NCBI GenBank assembly: GCA_013152315.1
Contig: JAADGP010000043.1
Span: 1 to 61,028 of the forward strand
Source: FCB group bacterium
Lineage (GTDB): Bacteria; Fidelibacterota; Marinisomatia; Marinisomatales; JAADGP01
Reading direction: 5' to 3'
Length of the DNA stretch: 61,028 nt
Under the pieces are notes generated by a model, which saw nothing but the letters and a program-made list of their open reading frames with translations, was not told where the DNA came from and did not search any database. Positions 2,754 to 60,990 of the stretch are shown here, one piece after another. The first letter of the stretch is position 1. The number at the start of each line of letters is the position of its first letter. A program made the position numbers and the translations under genes.

Positions 2754-2788
2754 CAAGAACCAAGAACCAAATATCAAGAGCCAAATAA
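2754..2788 (+). repeat. CAAGARCCAAA short tandem module next to a family-2 copy
   Basis: CAAGAAC CAAGAACCAAATAT CAAGAGCCAAATAA. A related module occurs in reverse orientation at 7671-7704. Confidence 0.6.
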
Positions 2789-2790
2789 GC

Positions 2791-2932
2791 ACGTTTTACG
2801 TTTCCCCGACATGCGCTGTGCTTTGTCGGGGTCTCCGCTACGCTCCGACACGCATCACGTTTCACGTCCCCTGTTTTCCCGACAGTCGCTGCGCTCCGTC
2901 GGGATCTCCACTCCGTTCCGACACGCACCACA
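2791..2932 (+). repeat. family-2 intergenic hairpin element, two tandem copies
   Basis: Copy 1 at 2791-2867 (ACGTTTTACGTTTCCCCGACATGCGCTGTGCTTTGTCGGGGTCTCCGCTACGCTCCGACACGCATCACGTTTCACGT). Copy 2 at 2868-2932. Confidence 0.85.
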
Positions 2933-3971: not shown

Positions 3972-4116
3972 CGGTTTTTTTGAAAAAAATAACAGCCTGC
4001 TCTGATAGTGGAATGGGGAGGAGTGTATTGGGGAAGTGAGTTGGTTGGGGAATTAAACGAAAGTGAAGTATCAAACTATTTTTTCATTTTTGGATAAAGG
4101 CTAAAACACAGTATCT

Positions 4117-4159
4117 GAAACGTAAAACGTGTCGTAGCGAATGTCGGGAACGCATGATA
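4117..4159 (-). repeat. family-2 element, short (internally deleted) copy
   Basis: The reverse complement reads ...GCGTTCCCGACATTCGCTACGACACGTTTTACGTTTC. It lacks the 3' stem half. Confidence 0.6.
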
Positions 4160-4629
4160 TTCCACTCACAGGTTTATGCCCGGCTTTAAGAATTTTAAGA
4201 ATAAACGCACTCTAACGAATATGATTTATCTGTAATGCTCACTCTGTGGTCTGCCCTTGAGAAATAATGTTGAGAGCATTGAAGATAAAATCGGGTTGGG
4301 CAGAACCGGACTGTTATTGAACACCTCACAGCCCGAATTTATAATTACCTATGCGGGTTGTAAATCCAATAATGAACTATAGCACCTACCCCGTATTCAA
4401 GATATTTTTGAAAAAATATGGTTTCCCGGGTGGTAAATTACCGGTCTGCCAAAGAAGCGCGGAATACAAAGACATGATGTGCCTGGATAAATAATTCCCG
4501 ATATTTTAATCACCTTCGCCCCGGGAAAACTCCTTTTATCCCCTGACATTTCCACCGGTTCGCTGGAAATAAGATAACCAACTCAGCCTTAGCGGATTGT
4601 TCGATTTTGATAAGAAAGAAAATTACTTA

Positions 4630-6441
4630 ATGGATATTAGAAATATTGCAATTATTGCCCATGTTGACCATGGGAAAACGACGATGGTGGATCGGATTCT
4701 CCATCAGGTGAAACTGTTCCGGGATAATCAGGAAGTGCGGGATTTGATCCTGGATTCAAGTGACCTGGAACGGGAGCGCGGGATAACCATTTTGTCCAAG
4801 AATGTGTCAGTGCGATATAAGGGAGTGAAGATTAATATTATCGATACTCCCGGCCACTCGGATTTCGGAGGGGAAGTAGAGCGCGTCCTGAATATGGCCG
4901 ACGGTGTGCTGTTGCTGGTTGACGCTTTTGAAGGACCCATGCCGCAAACGCGATTTGTTTTGCAGAAAGCATTGGAACTGGGTTTGAAACCGATCGTCGT
5001 GATCAATAAAGTCGATAAACCGAATTGCAATCCGGGAGAAGTAAACGAACTTGTTTTCGAACTGATGTATTCTCTGGATGCCACGGACGAGCAATTGGAT
5101 TTTCCCACGGTTTACGGTTCCTCAAAACAGGGCTGGATGGGAGCCGACTGGAAAACACCGACGAACGATGTTACCTATTTGCTGGACACGATTATTGAAT
5201 ATATTGATCCGCCAAAGGATAACCAGGGGACTTTACAATTGCAGATTAATTCCCTGGACTATTCGTCATATACCGGGAAGATTGCCGTTGGGAGGGTGCA
5301 CAAGGGAAGTATTAGAATGGGTGACCAGGTTTCCGTTATTCAGAGAGACGGTCAAATCAATAAATCGGTCATTAAGGAACTTTATCTTTTTGAAGGACTG
5401 GGGAAAGTAAAAACCAAGGAAGAGGTTAAGTCCGGCGAAATAGTAGCCATAATGGGACTTGAAAAATTTGACATCGGGGATACCATTGCCGATTTTGATG
5501 AACCGGAAGCTTTAAAGCCGATCGCCGTCGATGAGCCGGCGATGAGTATGCTTTTCACCATTAACAACTCCCCGTTTTTTGGGAGAGAGGGGAAGTATGT
5601 TACCTCACGGCATATCCGGCAAAGATTATTTAAGGAAATCGAGAAGAATCTGGCGTTAAGGGTCGAGGAAACGGATTCACCCGATAAATTACTGGTTTAC
5701 GGCCGGGGTATTCTTCATTTATCCATTTTGGTGGAAACGATGAGGAGAGAGGGGTACGAAATTCAATTGGGTCAGCCCAAAGTGGTGATTAAGGAAATCG
5801 ATGGTTTTAAACATGAGCCGATCGAACTGCTGAATGTAAATGTGCCCAAAGAGTTTTCCGGAAAAGTAATAGAGATCGTTACCAGGCGCAAAGGCGATAT
5901 TCTGAATATCGAGACCAGGAATGACAGGATATTCCTTGAATTCAAAATATCGGCCAGGGGGTTAATCGGACTTACCAAGCCGATCCTGACGGCTACCGAA
6001 GGTGAGGCCGTGATTTCGCACCGGTTCAAGGGTTATGAGCCGTGGAAAGGCGAAATCCAAAGCAAGAGAAATGGCGCGTTGATAGCTATGAAAACCGGAA
6101 CGGCCATCGCGTATTCAATTGACAAACTGCAGGACCGGGGTAAATTTTTCATTGAACCCAATGAAAAAGTGTATGCGGGACAAGTGATCGGTGAGGGCAC
6201 AAGGCAGGATGATATATTAATAAATGTAATCAAGACGAAAAAACTATCCAATATGCGGGCTGCCGGTTCCGATGAAAAAACGTCCATTGCTCCGGCAATA
6301 AAGTTCTCCCTGGAAGAAGCCATGGAATATGTCGGCGAAGATGAATACGTTGAAGTAACCCCCAAATCCATTCGCCTGAGAAAGATAGTGTTAGATGAAC
6401 AGGAAAGGAAGAGGCAAAGGAACCGGAAGGGGAATGGATAG
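4630..6441 (+). CDS. typA: translational GTPase TypA/BipA
   Basis: G motifs AHVDHGKTT, DTPGH and NKVD, with EF-G-like domain order over ~600 aa. ATG at 4630 (MDIRNIAII...) is preferred over the TTG at 4597. Confidence 0.95.
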   Translation: MDIRNIAIIAHVDHGKTTMVDRILHQVKLFRDNQEVRDLILDSSDLERERGITILSKNVSVRYKGVKINIIDTPGHSDFGGEVERVLNMADGVLLLVDAFEGPMPQTRFVLQKALELGLKPIVVINKVDKPNCNPGEVNELVFELMYSLDATDEQLDFPTVYGSSKQGWMGADWKTPTNDVTYLLDTIIEYIDPPKDNQGTLQLQINSLDYSSYTGKIAVGRVHKGSIRMGDQVSVIQRDGQINKSVIKELYLFEGLGKVKTKEEVKSGEIVAIMGLEKFDIGDTIADFDEPEALKPIAVDEPAMSMLFTINNSPFFGREGKYVTSRHIRQRLFKEIEKNLALRVEETDSPDKLLVYGRGILHLSILVETMRREGYEIQLGQPKVVIKEIDGFKHEPIELLNVNVPKEFSGKVIEIVTRRKGDILNIETRNDRIFLEFKISARGLIGLTKPILTATEGEAVISHRFKGYEPWKGEIQSKRNGALIAMKTGTAIAYSIDKLQDRGKFFIEPNEKVYAGQVIGEGTRQDDILINVIKTKKLSNMRAAGSDEKTSIAPAIKFSLEEAMEYVGEDEYVEVTPKSIRLRKIVLDEQERKRQRNRKGNG

Positions 6442-7653: not shown

Positions 7654-7670
7654 GTCAGATTAGCCCTTGG

Positions 7671-7704
7671 AGTTTGGTTCTTGGCTCTTGATCTTTGGCT
7701 CTTC
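7671..7704 (-). repeat. CAAGARCCAAA short tandem module (reverse orientation) next to a family-2 copy
   Basis: The reverse complement reads GAAGAGCCAAAGAT CAAGAGCCAAGAACCAAACT. Confidence 0.6.
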
Positions 7705-7774
7705 CACGTTTCCCCGACATCCGCTGCGCTTCGCCGGGATCTACGTATCACGCATCACGTTTCACGCATCACGT
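7705..7774 (+). repeat. family-2 element
   Basis: CACGTTTCCCCGACATCCGCTGCGCTTCGCCGGGATCTACG followed by four tandem heptamers (TATCACG CATCACG TTTCACG CATCACG) at 7746-7773. Confidence 0.85.
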
Positions 7775-8399: not shown

Positions 8400-8409
8400 C
8401 GGTTTCATT

Positions 8410-8607
8410 GTACGACAACCGTCCTGCCGCTGCGGGACAAGTTCCTCGGTTGTCGAGTATGGACTATTAGTTAAACCCTCAACAAGGAACGTCAGGTATA
8501 AATGTTCGACGCACTCTTTTCCTGGTTGTCGAGCGTAATCTATCAATGGGACCCGTCAACCAAGCTTGCCTGGCGTAACGCAGTGTAGCCAGGGATGCTT
8601 GACGTAC
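8410..8607. repeat. REP/BIME-like cluster (family 1), inverted relative to the RAYT locus
   Basis: A-long(+) 8410-8456 (GTACGACAACCGTCCTGCCGCTGCGGGACAAGTTCCTCGGTTGTCGAG), degenerate A ~8504-8533, B-long(-) 8553-8607 ending ...GCTTGACGTAC. Confidence 0.9.
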
Positions 8608-8677
8608 TACATACAGGATTTACCGGTTGAATCGGGGGGAGTGGAACGGTAATTTCGCAGACGTTATCGCGTTGAAA

Positions 8678-10252
8678 ATGAAGCAAACATCAATCATCCT
8701 TATTTCGATAATCTTTTCGTGCGTTCTATTCTCCCAGGAAGCCAGGAGTGTCCAGGGGGCTTTTGGGGCCGTTACCATCGACGGCAAAATTTGGAACCAA
8801 ATTGCCCTGCGACCGGTCATTCCGATCTGGAAATTCGGGGTCGCGCTCGATTTGGTCCTGTACATCGACCAGGACGGGAATATCCACAAGGATGAATGGG
8901 ATTTCTCCAGTCCGTCGGCGATTAAAAACACATTGATCGATAAAATCTACTACGTGCGTTTCGGTTATAGAACGGATCCGGTTTATTTTAAAATAGGCGC
9001 TCTTGATCGCGTGTCCTTGGGGTATGGGATTCTGGTGAACGGTTATGCCAATACGGTTCTTTATCCTCAGGTGCGAAAAGTCGGTTTGGAATGGAGTGTG
9101 AAAAACAAGCTGCTGTCCGTGCAGGGATTCGTAAATGATTTTAAAGAAAACCTGGGTCTGGTTGGTTTGCGTGTCGAACGGCCGTTGATGCCCGGAACAC
9201 CGGTTGGTGTGTCGGTGATTCTGGACAGAAATCAATACCTGGGATTAAAGGATCAGGATGATGACGGCCGGCCGGATCTGGTTGATGATTTTCCCAATAA
9301 CAAATTTTACTGGGTCGATTCCGATGGCGATGGCATCGCGGATAACGATCCCCTGGAATGGGATATTGACGGAGATGGGATTACCGATACCTTGGATAGC
9401 CGGATTCCGGGTTGGACGCTGGACACGACAATCGTGTTGGACCGGGATATTCTGCGCCGGGACGAACCATTGAATATAAAGGAAGACCGCGACCCGGTCG
9501 GCGCCATAGCCCTGGATATCGGTTTCCCGATCGTTGTCGAATCCAACATGTCGGTGTCCATATACGCCCAGGCGGCCAAGATGATCGGGAAAACATGGGA
9601 CCCGGAGAAAAAGAAAAAAGTTTCCACCGGTTCGGGAATTATTCCCGTCGGCATCGCGACCCGTTTCGGTCCGGCCCGGTTTAACCTGGAATACCGGATG
9701 ATCCCCCGGGGCAGATTTGAATTCGGTTACTGGAACCAGTCGTACCAGATTGAACGGGCCTCCATTTCAACCAGTGGGGAAGGAACCGGTCAGGCGGGCA
9801 ACGTAACCGCGATCATTACCAAAGAAAGCAGTTTGGGCCGGTATGGCCCCCTTAAAGGCTTTTACGCGCTTTTAAGTCTGGACTTGGGGAAACTGATTAT
9901 GGCGGAAGCGGCCTACCAGAATTTATCCGGAGAAATTTGGGATGAGGATACCCAGGAATTTTCGTATTCACCCAACCAGAATTTTTACGCCAATCTGAAA
10001 TTGCAGAAAAGTATCAGTCGTATTAAAACAGCCAAATTATTTTACCAGCAAAGAAACGTTCCCAACCTGTTTTCATTTGAATTTACCGAAAGCACGATTA
10101 TGGGATATCGCCTGGGACTCGCATTGGGGTCCGGAATGGTGCTTACTTATACCTATCAGCGGACATTTCGCGATTTAAACGGCGACGGCGATGTGAAGGA
10201 TGAAAATGAAATGGTCAATCTCACCGCAATTGAAACCAGTTTCACCTTTTAA
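8678..10252 (+). CDS. outer-membrane beta-barrel-like protein with thrombospondin-type-3-like acidic Ca-binding repeats
   Basis: Signal peptide MKQTSIILISIIFSCVLFSQ at the internal ATG 8678. Central DQDDDGRPDLVDDF...DSDGDGIADNDPLEWDIDGDGITDTLD repeats. Alternating beta-strand pattern, with the C-terminus ending ...AIETSFTF. Confidence 0.65.
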   Translation: MKQTSIILISIIFSCVLFSQEARSVQGAFGAVTIDGKIWNQIALRPVIPIWKFGVALDLVLYIDQDGNIHKDEWDFSSPSAIKNTLIDKIYYVRFGYRTDPVYFKIGALDRVSLGYGILVNGYANTVLYPQVRKVGLEWSVKNKLLSVQGFVNDFKENLGLVGLRVERPLMPGTPVGVSVILDRNQYLGLKDQDDDGRPDLVDDFPNNKFYWVDSDGDGIADNDPLEWDIDGDGITDTLDSRIPGWTLDTTIVLDRDILRRDEPLNIKEDRDPVGAIALDIGFPIVVESNMSVSIYAQAAKMIGKTWDPEKKKKVSTGSGIIPVGIATRFGPARFNLEYRMIPRGRFEFGYWNQSYQIERASISTSGEGTGQAGNVTAIITKESSLGRYGPLKGFYALLSLDLGKLIMAEAAYQNLSGEIWDEDTQEFSYSPNQNFYANLKLQKSISRIKTAKLFYQQRNVPNLFSFEFTESTIMGYRLGLALGSGMVLTYTYQRTFRDLNGDGDVKDENEMVNLTAIETSFTF

Positions 10253-15760: not shown

Positions 15761-15874
15761 CTTGTCCCTTGTGAAAAGACATGTCAATCCTGGAAAAGAC
15801 GCAACACGTTTTCCGCCAGCCGGCGGATTTCACACAGGGTTTGAAGAATAACTCAAAACGAAGAAAGGGTAATC

Positions 15875-21002: not shown

Positions 21003-21009
21003 TGTTAAA

Positions 21010-21196
21010 GTACGACAACCATCCCGCCGTTGCGGTACAGGTTCCCTGGTTGTCGAGTAGGATGCATCAACAGAAATCGTCAAGCAGGGATACAAAAGTA
21101 CGACAACCGTCCTCGGTTGTCGAGCGTGATCTCTCAGCAAAAACCGTCAAGCAGGCTTGCCTGGCGTAACGCAGTGTAGACAGGGATGCTTGACGG
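21010..21196. repeat. REP/BIME-like cluster (family 1), inverted relative to the RAYT locus
   Basis: A-long(+) 21010-21056, B half 21077-21094, A-short(+) 21098-21124 (GTACGACAACCGTCCTCGGTTGTCGAG), B-long(-) 21144-21196. Confidence 0.9.
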
Positions 21197-24259: not shown

Positions 24260-24353
24260 TTGGGGGGTAGATACTATTTTGGGGTGGATTATACCTGATT
24301 ATATTTTATAAGGCAAAAATATGGAACAAACCTAATCCGGCTAATTTATTGCC

Positions 24354-24614
24354 TCAGGTTTGTGTCAAAGAATTCAGATGACGCGTAATCTGAGCCTTTT
24401 TCCTTGCGGCAGTATTTTTATGGATTAATTTTTTATTGGCCATTTTGTCAATAAAACTTACTGCCTGCTTATAATATTTTTCCGCAACCCCGGCTTCGTC
24501 GGAGTTTAATACGTTTTTAATTAATGTCCGTAAACGGGACATATTTTGAATATTTCTCTCCCGGCGTGTTTCGTCCTGCCGGTTACGTTTTATCTGTTGT
24601 GGATGTCGATCCAT
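24354..24614 (-). CDS. rpsT: 30S ribosomal protein S20
   Basis: 86 aa and highly basic. KRNRQDETRRERN...LIHKNTAARKKAQITRHL is typical of S20. Confidence 0.9.
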   Translation of the reverse strand: MDRHPQQIKRNRQDETRRERNIQNMSRLRTLIKNVLNSDEAGVAEKYYKQAVSFIDKMANKKLIHKNTAARKKAQITRHLNSLTQT

Positions 24615-24978
24615 TCTGTTTTTATTCCTTTGAATATTGGGCGGAAAATTATCCTGAATTACTACAGGAAGTCAACCGAAAGTCAATATTTGTGTAATAC
24701 CTTAATAAAAGTACTATAAACCAATTTGCCGGCAGGTTAAATCGCCTTCCCGGCAAAAAGAAAATAATAGAGTGTTAAAGATGTATTATATCGTTTCCCC
24801 AAGCGTTAATCCATGTTTCTATAAGATCGATATAACATCCCGGAAGATTTCTACTCGTTTCTCGTTTGGTTTCTTAGGGCAAACCTACGAAATAAGGGAG
24901 AAAACCGACAATATAGGGTTGATATTTATTTGGGCTATAAAGATAAATAATTAAGGATATATTAATAATAAACAGAAT

Positions 24979-25012
24979 ATATTTAGGTATAATTAATATA
25001 AAACCTAAATAT
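24979..25012. promoter_or_regulatory. palindrome upstream of the porin-amt-glnK operon
   Basis: ATATTTAGGT (24979-24988) and ACCTAAATAT (25003-25012) are perfect reverse complements separated by an AT-only 14-nt spacer. The site is ~105 nt upstream of ATG 25116. Confidence 0.4.
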
Positions 25013-25115
25013 TTCTTGCTTTTAATGGTCGTTTTAATTTATTGTTCCACCCGTAAAAAGGATCGGATTTTGTCGAATTAACCGAATTCATGATAAAAGA
25101 AAGGTAAAAAGAAAG

Positions 25116-25766
25116 ATGAAAAGAAAGATGATACTTAGAACAGTATTGTTAGCGATGGTAGCGATTGTCAACATAACAGTAGCCTTTGGCCAGGTAGGCA
25201 TGGGGGCAAGTTTGGTAAGCCGTTATGTTTGGCGCGGAACTGACTACGGAAACTCTCCCAGTATTCAACCCGGACTAAGCTACGCCATTAAAAACATTGA
25301 GATAGGCGCATCAGCGGCCTGGTCGTTAACCGACAGCCCCGGTTGGAACGAAAATGATCTTTATATTACGGCTTCTTTCGGTTCTTTCGGATTGACGTTG
25401 ACGGATTACTTTTTCCCGGATTATGATGGGAATGATAATTTCTTCGATTATGGCGATGAAGCGGGAGTTCATACCCTTGAACTCAGTGCCTCTTACGGAT
25501 TAGGTGCCCTAAGTATAATGGGTGCTGTCGATGTCCGGGGAGATGCGGATAAATCCAAATATTTGGAAATTGGCTATGAATTACCTGCCAGCGACGGATA
25601 CAGCGCCGATCTGGTTGTAGGACTTGGAGACGGATTTTATACGACCGATGGCGCTTTTGATGCCGTTCACGTAGGGGTTAATGTGTCCAAGGATAGCTAT
25701 AGCGCGTCCTACATCATCAATCCTGACGGAGAAACTTCCTTTCTTGTTTTTGGAGTAAGTTTCTAA
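25116..25766 (+). CDS. small outer-membrane beta-barrel (TorF-like putative porin) upstream of amt
   Basis: 216 aa with a signal peptide (LLAMVAIVNITVAFGQ) and SRYVWRGTDYG. Alternating strands, with a C-terminal ...FLVFGVSF. Confidence 0.65.
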   Translation: MKRKMILRTVLLAMVAIVNITVAFGQVGMGASLVSRYVWRGTDYGNSPSIQPGLSYAIKNIEIGASAAWSLTDSPGWNENDLYITASFGSFGLTLTDYFFPDYDGNDNFFDYGDEAGVHTLELSASYGLGALSIMGAVDVRGDADKSKYLEIGYELPASDGYSADLVVGLGDGFYTTDGAFDAVHVGVNVSKDSYSASYIINPDGETSFLVFGVSF

Positions 25767-27660: not shown

Positions 27661-27935
27661 GAATGTCAGTTACTATTTAACTATTGTAAAAAGAATACGT
27701 AAACATATTGAAATTGAAAAAGGCTTAGGCTTAGGCGAAGACTGAGGAGAGAATATTTTCAGGGGGAAAGTATGAGGAATTATTTTTTTGTATACTTAAC
27801 TCGGTGGGGAATATGTTAATAATTGGTAAGTCGAAAAGTTGGGAAGTCCTAATCCGCCGGAAAGATAGGCAAGTGTCAGGGGAATATCGAACATGGTTTT
27901 TTCTTAAATCGGGGCATAAACATGCAAGGGGAATA

Positions 27936-27982
27936 TCATACGTTCCCGACAGTCGAAACGCTCCGACATGTTTCACGTTTCA
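27936..27982 (+). repeat. family-2 element, short copy
   Basis: ACGTTCCCGACAGTCGAAACGCTCCGACATGTTTCACGTTTCAG. It lacks the 3' stem half. Confidence 0.6.
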
Positions 27983-28121
27983 GACTCTTTTCCTCAACCT
28001 GTGTCTTTGCCTTCATGGATATCCAAAAATGAAGAATACAATAGAATTTGGATATAATTTATCAACCCACAAGTAATATTTTACAAACATATCACGTTTC
28101 GCATATCGGCAACTGGTGAAG

Positions 28122-40726: not shown

Positions 40727-40826
40727 TGATTACGTTTCACGTTTCACTCATTACGTTTAACGTTTCCCCGACAGTTGCTACGCTTCATCGGGGTCTCCAC
40801 GACGTTCCGACACGCACCACGTTTCA
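40727..40826 (+). repeat. family-2 element with extended 5' heptamer arm
   Basis: GATTACG TTTCACG TTTCACT CATTACG TTTAACG TTTCCCC (40728-40769), then GACAGTTGCTACGCTTCATCGGGGTCTCCACGACGTTCCGACACGCACCACGTTTCAA. Confidence 0.85.
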
Positions 40827-40899
40827 ATTCCATGATCCCTCTCATCTTTTATTCTCTGCCATTGCATCCATATAGGTTATCGACGTAATTTTGGTCAAT

Positions 40900-50170: not shown

Positions 50171-50217
50171 GTCAGCGCGTGTCACGTTTCCCCCGGCACA
50201 CGCTACACTTTTGTCAG
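50171..50217 (+). repeat. family-2 element, degenerate copy
   Basis: GTGTCACGTTTCCCCCGGCACACGCTACAC matches only the 5' half of the consensus. Confidence 0.4.
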
Positions 50218-52227: not shown

Positions 52228-52603
52228 GTACGTCAACCATCCCTGTCTCCACTGCGTTATGCCAGACAAGCTTGCTTGACGATTCCCATTGAGGATTTAT
52301 ATTCGACAACCGAGGACGGAGTACGTCAACCATCCTTGGTTGACGGTTTCTGTTGATACATCATACTCGACAACCACGGAAGGAGTACTTCAAGTATCCC
52401 TGTCTAAACAGTGCTACGCCAGGCAAGCTTGGTTTACGGTTCTTGCTGAGGGTTCTTACTTATCATCCATGCTCGACAACCGAGGACGGTTGTCGCACTT
52501 GTACGTCAAGCATCTTTGCTTGACGAATACCGGAGTTTAATTTTATTAGCATCAAGTCGACAACCAAGGAACTTGTCCCGCAACGGCGGGATGGTTGTCG
52601 TAC
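52228..52603. repeat. REP/BIME-like array (family 1), upstream of RAYT
   Basis: Units: B-long 52228-52281, B-short 52321-52346, degenerate B-long 52385-52439, A-short(-) 52472-52498, B-short 52501-52525, A-long(-) 52556-52603. Degenerate A half-units lie at ~52301 and ~52367. Confidence 0.9.
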
Positions 52604-52653
52604 TCTTGGTTTGAAAGTTTTGAAAAAATTATAGTTGTGCGAAATTTACTATT

Positions 52654-53292
52654 ATGAAACAGGTCTATTATCGACATCTTCCTCACATTCAACCCCTTGG
52701 CGCAACAATATTTGTAACCTTTCGATTAGCTGGAAGTTTACCCCAGGAAGTAATAGACCAGTTAAAGGAAGAAAAAAACACATTAATAAAAATTATACGG
52801 AATTGCCCCGATAAGGCGAGGAGTATTGCTAAAAAAGAGCTGAAACAACTCTATTATCGATATGATGAATTTTTGCATAATTCGTCGGTCGGGCCTCATT
52901 ATTTACGAATTGGTAAGATTGCTGAATTAGTCTGTGATTCAATGAAATATTGGGATCAAAAGAAATACGATTTATTGGCATATTGTGTGATGTCGAACCA
53001 TGTGCATAAAGTAATTGTTCCTTTGTCGATAAAAGAAGATGAATATTATTCGTTAGCGGATATTATGCACAGTATCAAAAGTTATTCAGCAAGTGAAGCG
53101 AATAAGATATTAGATCGGAAAGGTCAGTTCTGGACACATGAAAGTTTCGATCATTATTGTCGTAGTGAGGGAGAAGAACTTGAAGTAATAAAATATGTTC
53201 TCAATAATCCTGTAAAAGCCGGTCTGGTTAAAAATGCAAAACACTGGAAATGGAGTTACGTGAAAGAAGAATTGAAGGACTATATTGGATAA
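52654..53292 (+). CDS. REP-associated tyrosine transposase (RAYT; IS200-like Y1 HUH enzyme)
   Basis: 212 aa with YRHLPHI, the HUH motif in CVMSNHVHKVIV and a Tyr motif IKYVLNNPVKAGLV. Flanked on both sides by palindromic repeat arrays. Confidence 0.88.
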   Translation: MKQVYYRHLPHIQPLGATIFVTFRLAGSLPQEVIDQLKEEKNTLIKIIRNCPDKARSIAKKELKQLYYRYDEFLHNSSVGPHYLRIGKIAELVCDSMKYWDQKKYDLLAYCVMSNHVHKVIVPLSIKEDEYYSLADIMHSIKSYSASEANKILDRKGQFWTHESFDHYCRSEGEELEVIKYVLNNPVKAGLVKNAKHWKWSYVKEELKDYIG

Positions 53293-53293
53293 T

Positions 53294-53591
53294 GTACGTC
53301 AAGCATCCTTGCTTGACGGTTCCTGTTATTGAATCATGCCTGACAACCGAGGACGCTTCCCATTGATGGGGCACTCGACAACCGGGGACGGTTGTCGTAC
53401 ATGTACGTCAAGCATCCCTGGTTACACTGCGTTACGCCAGGCAAGCCTGCTTGACGATTTCTGTTGAGGGATCATGCTCGACAACCAAGGATGGTTGTCG
53501 TACTTTTGTATCCCTGCTTGACGGTTCCTGCTGAGGGGTTACACCCGACAACCGAGGAACTTGTCCCGCAGCGGCGGGACGGTTGTCGTAC
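53294..53591. repeat. REP/BIME-like array (family 1), downstream of RAYT
   Basis: Units: B-short 53294-53319, A-short(-) 53374-53400, B-long 53403-53456, A-short(-) 53477-53503, B half 53508-53524, A-long(-) 53544-53591. Confidence 0.9.
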
Positions 53592-53646
53592 ATGGTTCTG
53601 TCAGCTGTGATTTTTAATAAAGGTCAGAAGAAGCTTGATTTGAATA

Positions 53647-59520: not shown

Positions 59521-59584
59521 CACGCTTCCCCGACAGTCGCTACGTTCCTTCGGGATCTCCACTACGTTCCGACACGTATCATGT
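59521..59584 (+). repeat. family-2 element
   Basis: CACGCTTCCCCGACAGTCGCTACGTTCCTTCGGGATCTCCACTACGTTCCGACACGTATCATG. Confidence 0.85.
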
Positions 59585-59655
59585 TTTAAATCCTGTTTTT
59601 CAGCCTTCGTCTGCACTTTATTAAGCAATAGTGGCTTTATATTTTATTTTTGATC

Positions 59656-59688
59656 ATTTCCCCGGCACTTTGAAAGTGCCGGGGAAAT
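59656..59688. terminator. bidirectional terminator hairpin between convergent genes
   Basis: 16-nt arms ATTTCCCCGGCACTTT / AAAGTGCCGGGGAAAT form a GC-rich core with A/T-rich flanks on both sides. It lies between the stops at 59429 (+) and 59704 (-). Confidence 0.7.
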
Positions 59689-60917: not shown

Positions 60918-60990
60918 ACGTGATGCGTGATGCGTGAAATGTGTCGTAGCGGAGATTCCGGCGAAGCGTGGCGACTGTCGGGGAAACGTA
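60918..60990 (-). repeat. family-2 element (reverse orientation)
   Basis: The plus strand reads ACGTGATGCGTGATGCGTGAAATGTGTCGTAGCGGAGATTCCGGCGAAGCGTGGCGACTGTCGGGGAAACGTAA, the reverse complement of the consensus including three heptamers. Confidence 0.85.

Follow-up and report, generated by a model that had tools for sequence, protein, structure and literature searches.

A mosaic extragenic repeat family with heptamer tails in a genome of Candidatus Neomarinimicrobiota (Fidelibacterota)

Copies of the repeat in the window and their anatomy

The stretch of DNA analysed here, referred to as the window, comprises positions 1 to 61,028 of contig JAADGP010000043.1 (assembly GCA_013152315.1), and the subject of this work is a small dispersed repeat, designated family 2, which an original prediction made from the sequence alone had placed at positions 2791-2932 and at several other sites. 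The gene content of the window is of the chromosomal housekeeping kind (viz. BipA/TypA, AlaRS, UvrB, a MiaB-like radical-SAM enzyme, AmtB/P-II, a LolA-like protein and saccharopine dehydrogenase), with 43 of the 52 genes on the plus strand, a coding fraction of ~0.87, a G+C content of 47% and a G-over-C skew that is positive nearly throughout. The host, an uncultured bacterium of marine type, is assigned to Candidatus Neomarinimicrobiota, i.e. Fidelibacterota in NCBI (formerly Marinimicrobia/SAR406). Its membership in this phylum is supported by the 83-85% nucleotide identity and the common gene order of the window with contigs of the Neomarinimicrobiota metagenome-assembled genome (MAG) JALUTR01 (loci L029/L036, L043/L044 and L046/L053); across 10.6 kb, the identity between this sister species and the window is 84.5%.

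The family-2 copies are clustered by repeat-finding on the window, and a strict two-box pattern gives 4 matches in it versus 0 in 100 shuffles. A nhmmer profile made from nine copies and a covariance model run with its filters off concur in recognising six full copies (E<=1e-12) and two truncated ones, six of the eight being on the plus and two on the minus strand. These different methods agree that a dispersed repeat family is present where it was predicted; however, of the roughly nine copies originally claimed, the one at 50171-50217 is a doubtful relic and it is excluded from the family. The copies and this relic are as follows (E values are those of the covariance model unless indicated):

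c1: 2791-2867, plus strand; full core at 2798-2860 (E=4e-21; nhmmer E=5e-19), with 5' heptamers ACGTTTT/ACGTTTC and a 3' tail CACGCAT-CACGTTT-CACGT, in direct tandem with c2
c2: 2868-2932, plus strand; full core at 2871-2933 (E=2e-20), 41 nt upstream of the start of the MORN-repeat gene (2973)
c3: 7705-7774, plus strand; core at 7706-7760 without the second GCTACG-CCGACA segment (E=5e-15), then four to five heptamers at 7742-7773 (tandem-repeat finder, period 7/14)
c4: 40727-40826, plus strand; five 5' heptamers (40727-40759) and a full core at 40760-40822 (E=9e-21), in the spacer between the MiaB-like gene and uvrB
c5: 59521-59584, plus strand; full core at 59522-59584 (E=4e-20), between the convergent genes for the LolA-like protein and saccharopine dehydrogenase, past the conserved putative terminator hairpin of the latter
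c6: 60918-60990, minus strand; core at 60932-60989 with a 5-nt deletion in its second half and a (CACGCAT)x2-3 tail (E=3e-16), 78 nt upstream of the saccharopine dehydrogenase start and inverted relative to c5
c7: 4093-4192, minus strand; subfamily 2b, model match at 4120-4153 (E=0.022), antisense to both neighbouring genes within a 625-nt spacer
c8: 27901-28005, plus strand; subfamily 2b, model match at 27940-27978 (E=0.0034), between the convergent P-II and macro-domain genes
Doubtful relic: 50171-50217, plus strand; CACGTTTCCCC...GCTAC only (nhmmer E=1.7, covariance model E=1.1)

All seven loci occupied by these copies (c1 and c2 form one locus, between divergent genes) are intergenic; with ~87% of the window coding, the crude chance of this is ~7e-7. 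The statement that every copy is intergenic is thus borne out; a 90-aa open reading frame (ORF) that overlaps the 27936 copy is spurious. The short copies had been described as precisely lacking the 3' half of the stem, and the 3' stem arm is indeed absent from c7 and c8. However, they are not simple deletion derivatives, as pairwise alignment indicates that these two copies form their own subfamily (2b) of ~95 nt, which has a common extra 5' module (TTCTTAAA.C.GGGCATAAAC...). The layout of c7 consists of this module, a TTCCCGACA box, one GCTACG, and ACACG with a heptamer tail. The hairpin next to c5 is a perfect 12-bp inverted repeat (TATTTCCCCGGCAC..GTGCCGGGGAAATGA) at 59636-59675 on the minus strand, just downstream of the saccharopine dehydrogenase gene; it is kept in the sister locus L043, and it is likely the intrinsic terminator of this gene.

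The core of the element is ~63 nt long and can be written as TTYCCCGACA-(K)N(Y)GCYRYG-N5-YCGGRRTCTCC-GCTACG-TTCCGACACG, the alignment consensus being ACGTTTCCCCGACAKTCGCTACGCTTCGTCGGGATCTCCGCTACGTTCCGACACGCATCACGT. The original description holds for the consensus, for the two occurrences each of the words CCGACA and GCTACG and, in c1, for a stem of 8 bp with a 12-nt loop. The invariant positions are grouped in the left box T..CCCGACA, in GC..CG.T, in CGG..TCT.C and in CAC, and the box TYCCCGACA is invariant within the core, with two CCGACA boxes lying ~42 nt apart. The mean column identity of the family is ~83%. Within the left box, CCCGACA is unchanged in 10/10 full copies whereas the arm complementary to it is variable, and due to this the pattern is fitted better by recognition or conservation of sequence than by that of structure. 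The top strand of the element is C-rich (C/G=1.9 versus 0.81 for the window), and ~70% of its Gs are within CpG.

Every full copy also bears direct tandem heptamers of the form CACGYWT, on one or both sides and co-oriented with the core, which are absent from the original prediction. There are 11 heptamer doublets in the window versus 0.47 expected, all of them attached to copies and all co-oriented. Because the doublets exceed expectation and occur only beside copies, the heptamer tails are regarded as an integral part of the element. An autocorrelation analysis shows that the lag-7 signal arises in the tails alone, which rules out a heptamer periodicity within the core itself; the core has a weak lag-17 self-similarity, whose meaning is doubtful. 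Listed below are period-7 arrays of the tails and, in addition to these, other small modules that adjoin some of the copies or occur without them:

7743-7773, 40732-40766 and 60919-60937: period-7 arrays of 2-5 units (tandem-repeat finder)
2737-2754: hairpin-2 module ATCCGCCAGCCAGCGGAC, directly 5' of the c1/c2 array; the minus strand is predicted to have a terminator-like site at this position
15812-15827: solitary hairpin-2 TCCGCCAGCCGGCGGA without a core, flanked by CACGTTT and TTTCACA, in the spacer between an SNF-family symporter gene and the next gene
2754-2787, plus strand: heptamers of a second type (CAAGAAC/CAAGAGC/CAAATAT), adjoining the 5' end of c1
7660-7703, minus strand: inverted array of CAAGAAC-type heptamers, adjoining the 5' end of c3

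The hairpin-2 module, which is written TCCGCCNGGCGGA / TCCGCCAGCCGGCGGA, is also found inside or beside the copies in the related loci L023 and L046. These same two loci contain partial tandem remnants, comparable with the direct tandem of c1 and c2. The family-2 element is a mosaic in which the core is combined with small modules.

Tests of the hairpin and occurrence in related genomes

The central arms of the consensus, CCCGAC and GTCGGG, can form a stem of 5-8 bp with a loop of 12-14 nt, and in the alignment used for the pairing and covariation tests, which consists of 10 sequences only, 85.7% of the cells of this stem are paired versus 17-66% with a slid partner. A second pairing is available to the 3' arm, with the TCCGAC box downstream of it, where 86.2% are paired, and for both stems this is clearly above the slid controls. 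However, column shuffles equal the observed covariation and paired fraction in 229/500 and 115/500 trials. Only one pair in the alignment varies on both sides, and with these 10 sequences no covariation above that of shuffles is seen either for the first stem (score 0.038 versus 0.029, with 229/500 shuffles as high) or for the alternative stem (0.079 versus 0.113). In comparison to dinucleotide shuffles, there is no excess of RNA folding on either strand (z from -1.3 to +1.8), and the RNA folds of c3 and c6 are worse than those of the shuffles. The DNA folds range from z=-1.9 to +1.3, with only c1, whose hairpin is the best in the family, nearing significance (z=-1.87), and in c3, c5 and c6 the stem is not part of the minimum-energy fold. 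The imperfect hairpin reported originally is therefore present as complementarity in the consensus, but it is weak: no copy folds clearly better than the shuffled controls, and only the first approaches significance.

Other searches for a structural or functional signature likewise gave negative results. Rfam yields 0 matches at the gathering scores and, at E<=1, none on any copy; the sole match at E<=1 in the window (59635-59686, Sacc_telomerase, E=0.91) is a chance one that lies off the family-2 copies, on the hairpin downstream of the saccharopine dehydrogenase gene. Consensus scans detect no promoter-like or terminator-like sites inside any copy. A tRNA-derived origin is rejected, as the window contains no tRNAs. 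Blastn searches of plasmid and phage collections are empty for family 2, and an origin from other gene fragments was similarly set aside as nothing was found by blastn against these collections. Of the sequencing runs checked, one DNA run (X1) shares 14% of the words of the window, but its contigs are of low depth and contain no usable polymorphism, and no RNA sequencing runs sharing words of the window were found. Based on the lack of any Rfam match at E<=1, of a folding excess for RNA or DNA and of covariation, the suggestion that family 2 is a structured-RNA family is not upheld. The original prediction had named stem complementarity no greater than that of shuffled controls as a refutation, and on this ground the hairpin/RNA idea is refuted; the other grounds that it named do not apply, as copies exist outside the window and no match to Rfam or to a known IS was seen.

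In public collections, the family is rare. The strict two-box pattern was scanned against 185,579 species, each represented by one genome, giving 29 loci of which 3 are genuine, viz. two in JALUTR01 (L023 and L029) and one (L025) in SCKK01 (TS1B10-2), which is another Neomarinimicrobiota MAG. A second pattern, scanned against 241 million metagenome records, gave 13 loci; two of these are the sister MAG JALUTR01 again, and the other 11 (among L030-L042) correspond to a coding motif, PD(I/M)CCGSAGIYN, in a Cys-rich oxidoreductase subunit of high-GC genomes. Because this motif coincides with the second pattern, the words CCCGACA...CCGGGATCTAC are not unique to the element. Further members are present in three short contigs of run X1, whose flanks are not in the window. 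Copies thus exist outside the window, in two Neomarinimicrobiota MAGs and three small metagenome contigs, and these searches recovered it nowhere else beyond the window. With two and one strict-pattern matches per MAG, the densities in the relatives would appear to be much below the one copy per 7 kb of the window. A full-text literature search found no described extragenic repeats in Fidelibacterota.

The locus from SCKK01 shows an arrangement of its own. At L025 820-1650, a gene of the PF05635 family (a 23S-rRNA-IVP/Avd-like four-helix bundle) has an inverted array of CACG heptamers directly upstream, and downstream of it lies a family-2 core with a (CACGTTT)x3 tail. To judge from this single example, the gene may be a cassette with inverted heptamer arrays on either side.

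In the sister species, orthologous copies are kept at the sites of c2 and c4. The orthologue of c2 in L029 has a core that is ~88% identical, while the 40 nt extending from the element to the ATG of the MORN gene are ~97% identical. For c4, the core in L046/L053 is 80% identical, as compared to 84.5% genome-wide (a rate derived mostly from coding sequence) and to 93% for the adjacent uvrB upstream region. As the c4/L046 core is diverging at about this genome-average rate, no extra purifying selection on it is detectable. L046 also carries a partial extra copy and a hairpin-2 module. However, other copies lack a counterpart. Copy c1 is missing at the orthologous L029 site, which contains other sequence with small hairpins instead; c6 is absent from L043, where the homology stops exactly at the c6 heptamer tail and also halts before c5; and both c5 and c7 are situated at synteny breaks relative to the sister species. 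In the case of c7, synteny with L029 ends after the MORN-repeat gene, where the window has the 625-nt non-coding spacer (3972-4596) before bipA and the sister species has a different gene (L029 3730-3940). In place of c1, L029 has at 5105-5120 a perfect small palindrome (CTCCCGACGAAGGTCGGGAAG) with two further small hairpins alongside it, and this palindrome, which went undetected in the profile searches, looks like a loop-deleted family-2 stem. The orthologous sites of c3, c7 and c8 were also sought via BipA; this approach was rejected, as with ~89% identity between phyla the protein is too conserved, and it led to an unrelated contig (L050).

In more distant relatives, one site can be followed further. 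The MiaB/uvrB spacer that carries c4 is empty (88 nt) in L048/L049, whose UvrB is 79% identical; in L051 (75% identical UvrB) it consists of unrelated, repeat-free sequence; and in L047 (83% identical UvrB) it is occupied by an unrelated heptamer-plus-hairpin repeat. Because this spacer is empty, repeat-free or differently filled in the relatives, it is regarded as a hot spot of colonisation. The L047 repeat (9740-10000) consists of GGTCTGA/AGGTCGA-type heptamers and a GCGGACG..CGTCCGC hairpin, and no other occurrence of it was found within the 22 kb of L047. The sequence at this one site suggests a clade-wide propensity for independent colonisation by repeats of the heptamer-plus-hairpin kind. 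No family-2 copies were found in ~190 kb of the loci of other relatives. Taken together, these sequence comparisons show that copies have been gained and lost at hot spots between genes in a way that is restricted to the lineage, with selection on the core apparently not above the genome average.

Relation to known repeats and the explanations considered

Family 2 bears a number of likenesses to REPs and REPINs: it is short, multi-copy and extragenic (8 copies are spread over 7 loci, and no credible gene contains any of them), it has an imperfect palindrome, it occurs singly, in tandem and inverted, it lacks terminal inverted repeats (TIRs) and target-site duplications (TSDs), its copy number is very different between related genomes, and a RAYT-like gene with REPs of its own is located in the window. 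However, REPs are defined by a 5'-terminal GT(A/G)G that is directly followed by a palindrome (PMC3686654), and REP/REPIN systems by inverted copies that flank the RAYT gene and by REPIN doublets (PMC3686654, PMC3337134). On the complementary strand of family 2, GT(A/G)G is seen at the loop position in 6/10 copies and at the 5' position in 5/9. It is separated from the stem by 6 nt, and the CCCGACA arm is better conserved than it. The palindrome is weak; its consensus stem of 5-8 bp with a 12-14-nt loop has 85.7% of the cells paired, and its fold energies are no better than those of shuffles. The c1-c2 doublet is direct, and the two members of the sole inverted pair (c5/c6) are separated by 1.4 kb that include a gene. 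The core is also about three times the typical length of a REP, and it has the heptamer tails in addition.

The RAYT-like gene in the window (Y1_Tnp, PF01797) is located at 52654-53292, and it is flanked by family-1 REPs only, in the window and likewise in L043. The family-1 REPs are dense on both sides of this gene (52228-52604 and 53295-53592) and occur also at 8409-8608 and 21009-21195. They are of two types, viz. GTAC + CGTCAAGCA..TGCTTGACG and GTAC + GACAACC..GGTTGTC, and save for the head, which is GTAC and not GTAG, the layout of the gene and its repeats, found also in the sister L043, is that of a textbook REP/RAYT system. Apart from the word CGAC, family 2 has no architecture in common with these repeats. 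The original observations that it is unrelated to the REPs around the RAYT gene, and that no mobilising gene for it is in view, both remain valid.

In its mosaic construction from a core and modules, in variable number and orientation, family 2 resembles the BIMEs and the pneumococcal BOX elements, although the sequences of the modules are unrelated. The enterobacterial BIMEs are built from bona fide REPs, and their protein partners are IHF, gyrase and Pol I. A different kind of likeness exists to the cyanobacterial STRR, which are intergenic tandem repeats of heptamers, and to the TAACTGA repeats. In both cases, there are direct arrays of a 7-nt unit, with 2-5 units in family 2, which are intergenic and of patchy distribution, and the mechanism of spread is not known for either. 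However, the unit in family 2 is CACGYWT, and not TAACTGA, CCCCAGT, TTGGTCA or CAACAGT, and the arrays in the window are all attached to a 63-nt non-heptameric core. The TAACTGA heptamer repeats are found in Beggiatoaceae, Cyanobacteria and Bacteroidetes, and in BOGUAY the heptamer arrays abut start codons (PMC4679880), whereas those of family 2 are 41-140 nt away.

The ends of family 2 are direct (ACGTTYCCCGACA on the left and ACGTTCCGACA on the right), its only inverted repeat being the central stem, and no duplicated bases are seen in the flanks of nine full copies, whose boundaries are blurred by the variable tails. In these respects it differs from MITEs, e.g. Correia/NEMIS, ERIC and RUP, with which it shares being small, non-coding, dispersed and presumably mobilised in trans. 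The PATEs, which are derived from IS200/IS605, likewise lack TIRs and TSDs; however, they have two subterminal hairpins and family 2 has one weak hairpin. A parent insertion sequence with matching ends is not found in the window, and the plasmid and phage searches were empty. Family 2 is thus placed in kind with the small dispersed extragenic repeats, and it is assigned to no named family.

The best explanation of these results, which we hold at about even probability, is that family 2 is a lineage-specific, non-coding, non-autonomous and mosaic extragenic repeat of the REP/BIME-like kind. This is based upon its strictly intergenic location in both orientations, its tandem and truncated forms, its patchy presence and its genome-average divergence. 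The original designation as a MITE/REP-like or structured-RNA family is retained here in its dispersed, intergenic, REP-like half, the structured-RNA half being dropped. Family 2 is probably selfish or neutral DNA. Its copies would have spread within the genome by an activity acting in trans, and would now be mostly decaying, with no sequence-specific function for the host. The most likely spreader would be an HUH/Y1 enzyme of the IS200/RAYT type that is encoded elsewhere and acts by single-strand DNA transposition, recognising the TYCCCGACA box and the adjacent imperfect stem, after which the heptamer tails would lengthen and shorten by slippage. This mechanism is favoured because its chemistry needs no inverted termini or target duplications, both of which are absent, and reads a box plus an imperfect stem, and because genes of this type exist in the genome, e.g. 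the RAYT-like gene at 52654-53292. In a variant of it, heptamer arrays already in place may serve as short homology arms, with gene conversion or template switching copying the cores from one array to another.

Several observations weigh against this REP/BIME-like interpretation. No mobilising gene linked to family 2 was found, as the only Y1/RAYT-like gene in view is the one flanked by family-1 REPs. Half of the copies either have only a weak form of the stem that would be required by a Y1 enzyme or have lost it. The paralogues have remained at ~75-90% of the consensus, which some constraint could also explain. Across one element, the sequences from two samples of the sister species do not differ, which gives no sign of ongoing instability there, and no clean pair of an empty and a filled site with exact boundaries was found, the sister sites holding other sequence with no scar.

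Of the other explanations, the one that we consider next, though it is unlikely, is that the copies are cis-acting recognition arrays for an oligomeric nucleic-acid-binding protein which reads them as RNA or as a single strand and tunes the adjacent genes. Proteins of the TRAP/HutP type read triplets at fixed spacing, and the proposed binding sites would here be the ACG triplets every 7 nt in the tails together with the invariant CCGACA boxes. The integral and co-oriented tails of every full copy, the two boxes ~42 nt apart and the conservation of sequence rather than of structure, seen in the invariant CCCGACA box, are all consistent with this proposal, and at four loci a copy lies 41-140 nt upstream of a co-oriented start (c2/MORN, c3/DUF2721, c4/uvrB and c6/saccharopine dehydrogenase). 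There is also a precedent, as a regulatory protein-binding model has been proposed for the intergenic TAACTGA heptamer repeats (PMC4679880). However, c5 and c8 are located between convergent genes, c7 is antisense to both of its neighbours, and the flanking genes are without a common functional theme. Further, the sister species lacks copies at orthologous sites, relatives whose UvrB is 79-83% identical lack the family altogether, and the orthologous core diverges at the genome average although the true upstream regions adjoining it are far better kept. Somewhat less probable still is that the CACGYWT arrays are the primary feature, either as a platform for a lineage-specific nucleic-acid-binding protein (a regulon) or as portable homology arms by which cores spread with no transposase. 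A cassette-like unit of this sort is hinted at by L025, in which inverted heptamer arrays lie on either side of the PF05635 gene and one of the two sides also has a family-2 core.

An explanation at the level of the transcript is more improbable again. A Rho-dependent terminator (rut-like) or an insulating spacer will be expected to give a C-rich, G-poor and poorly structured RNA, and the base composition of the top strand, the RNA folding that is no better than shuffles (and for c3 and c6 worse) and the location of c3, c4, c5 and c8 downstream of co-oriented genes are all in keeping with this. However, rut sites need no conserved sequence, and the ~83% mean column identity is then left unexplained; c1/c2 lie between divergent genes, c7 has the wrong orientation, and the saccharopine dehydrogenase gene already has an intrinsic-terminator-like hairpin between itself and c5. 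The co-orientation with upstream genes should also not be interpreted as specific, as it is expected by chance when 43/52 genes and 6/8 copies are on the plus strand. The least probable explanation, which is largely refuted, is that the copies are structured small RNAs or hairpin-dependent REPs proper that stabilise the 3' ends of mRNAs. In its favour are the high paired fractions of both the central and the alternative stem and the fact that, on the complementary strand, most of the arm substitutions would be G-U wobbles. However, Rfam is empty at E<=1, the fold energies are within the range of the shuffles, which also equal the covariation and the paired fraction, and there is one two-sided change. 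Both truncated copies lack the 3' arm, promoter and terminator motifs are absent, and the conservation does not extend past about the genus level.

Other features of the window and significance of the family

Two other regions of the window contain features of note. Directly upstream of uvrB, at 40850-40899, there is a block (TTCTCTGCCATTGCA...TCGACGTAATTTTGGTCAATATGGCAGAG) that is strongly conserved down to 79% UvrB identity (L046, L047, L048). It holds TAATTTTG ~8 nt before the ATG, which matches TAnnTTTG, the -7 promoter motif of the Bacteroidetes type, and an inverted repeat (CTCTGCCAT...ATGGCAGAG) spans the uvrB start codon. From its sequence, this block suggests a near-leaderless mRNA or an operator. 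The second region (24260-25115) is an AT-rich spacer of 856 nt upstream of the ORF at 25116 and the amtB/P-II genes; it contains a 31-nt tandem repeat at 24936-25002 and a 12-nt unit (AAAAGAAAGATG) repeated three times at 25095-25131, which enters the start of the ORF.

Family 2 is a genuine yet ordinary genomic feature in a poorly sampled phylum, and it would be of scientific interest only if a specific Y1 transposase were tied to it or if its heptamer tails were protein-binding arrays. If the REP/BIME-like interpretation is correct, then it represents a repeat family not described before, from a phylum (Fidelibacterota) in which few genomes have been closed, and it joins a REP-like conserved core with STRR-like heptamer microsatellites, phenomena which are usually separate. 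It also marks the sites of intergenic turnover and the synteny breaks between sister species. A covariance model of the family could flag its elements in the annotation of MAGs, explain breaks between contigs and serve as a marker for strains or lineages. Further, if family 2 were to be tied to a specific Y1 transposase, the REP/RAYT paradigm would be extended to elements that lack the GTAG head.

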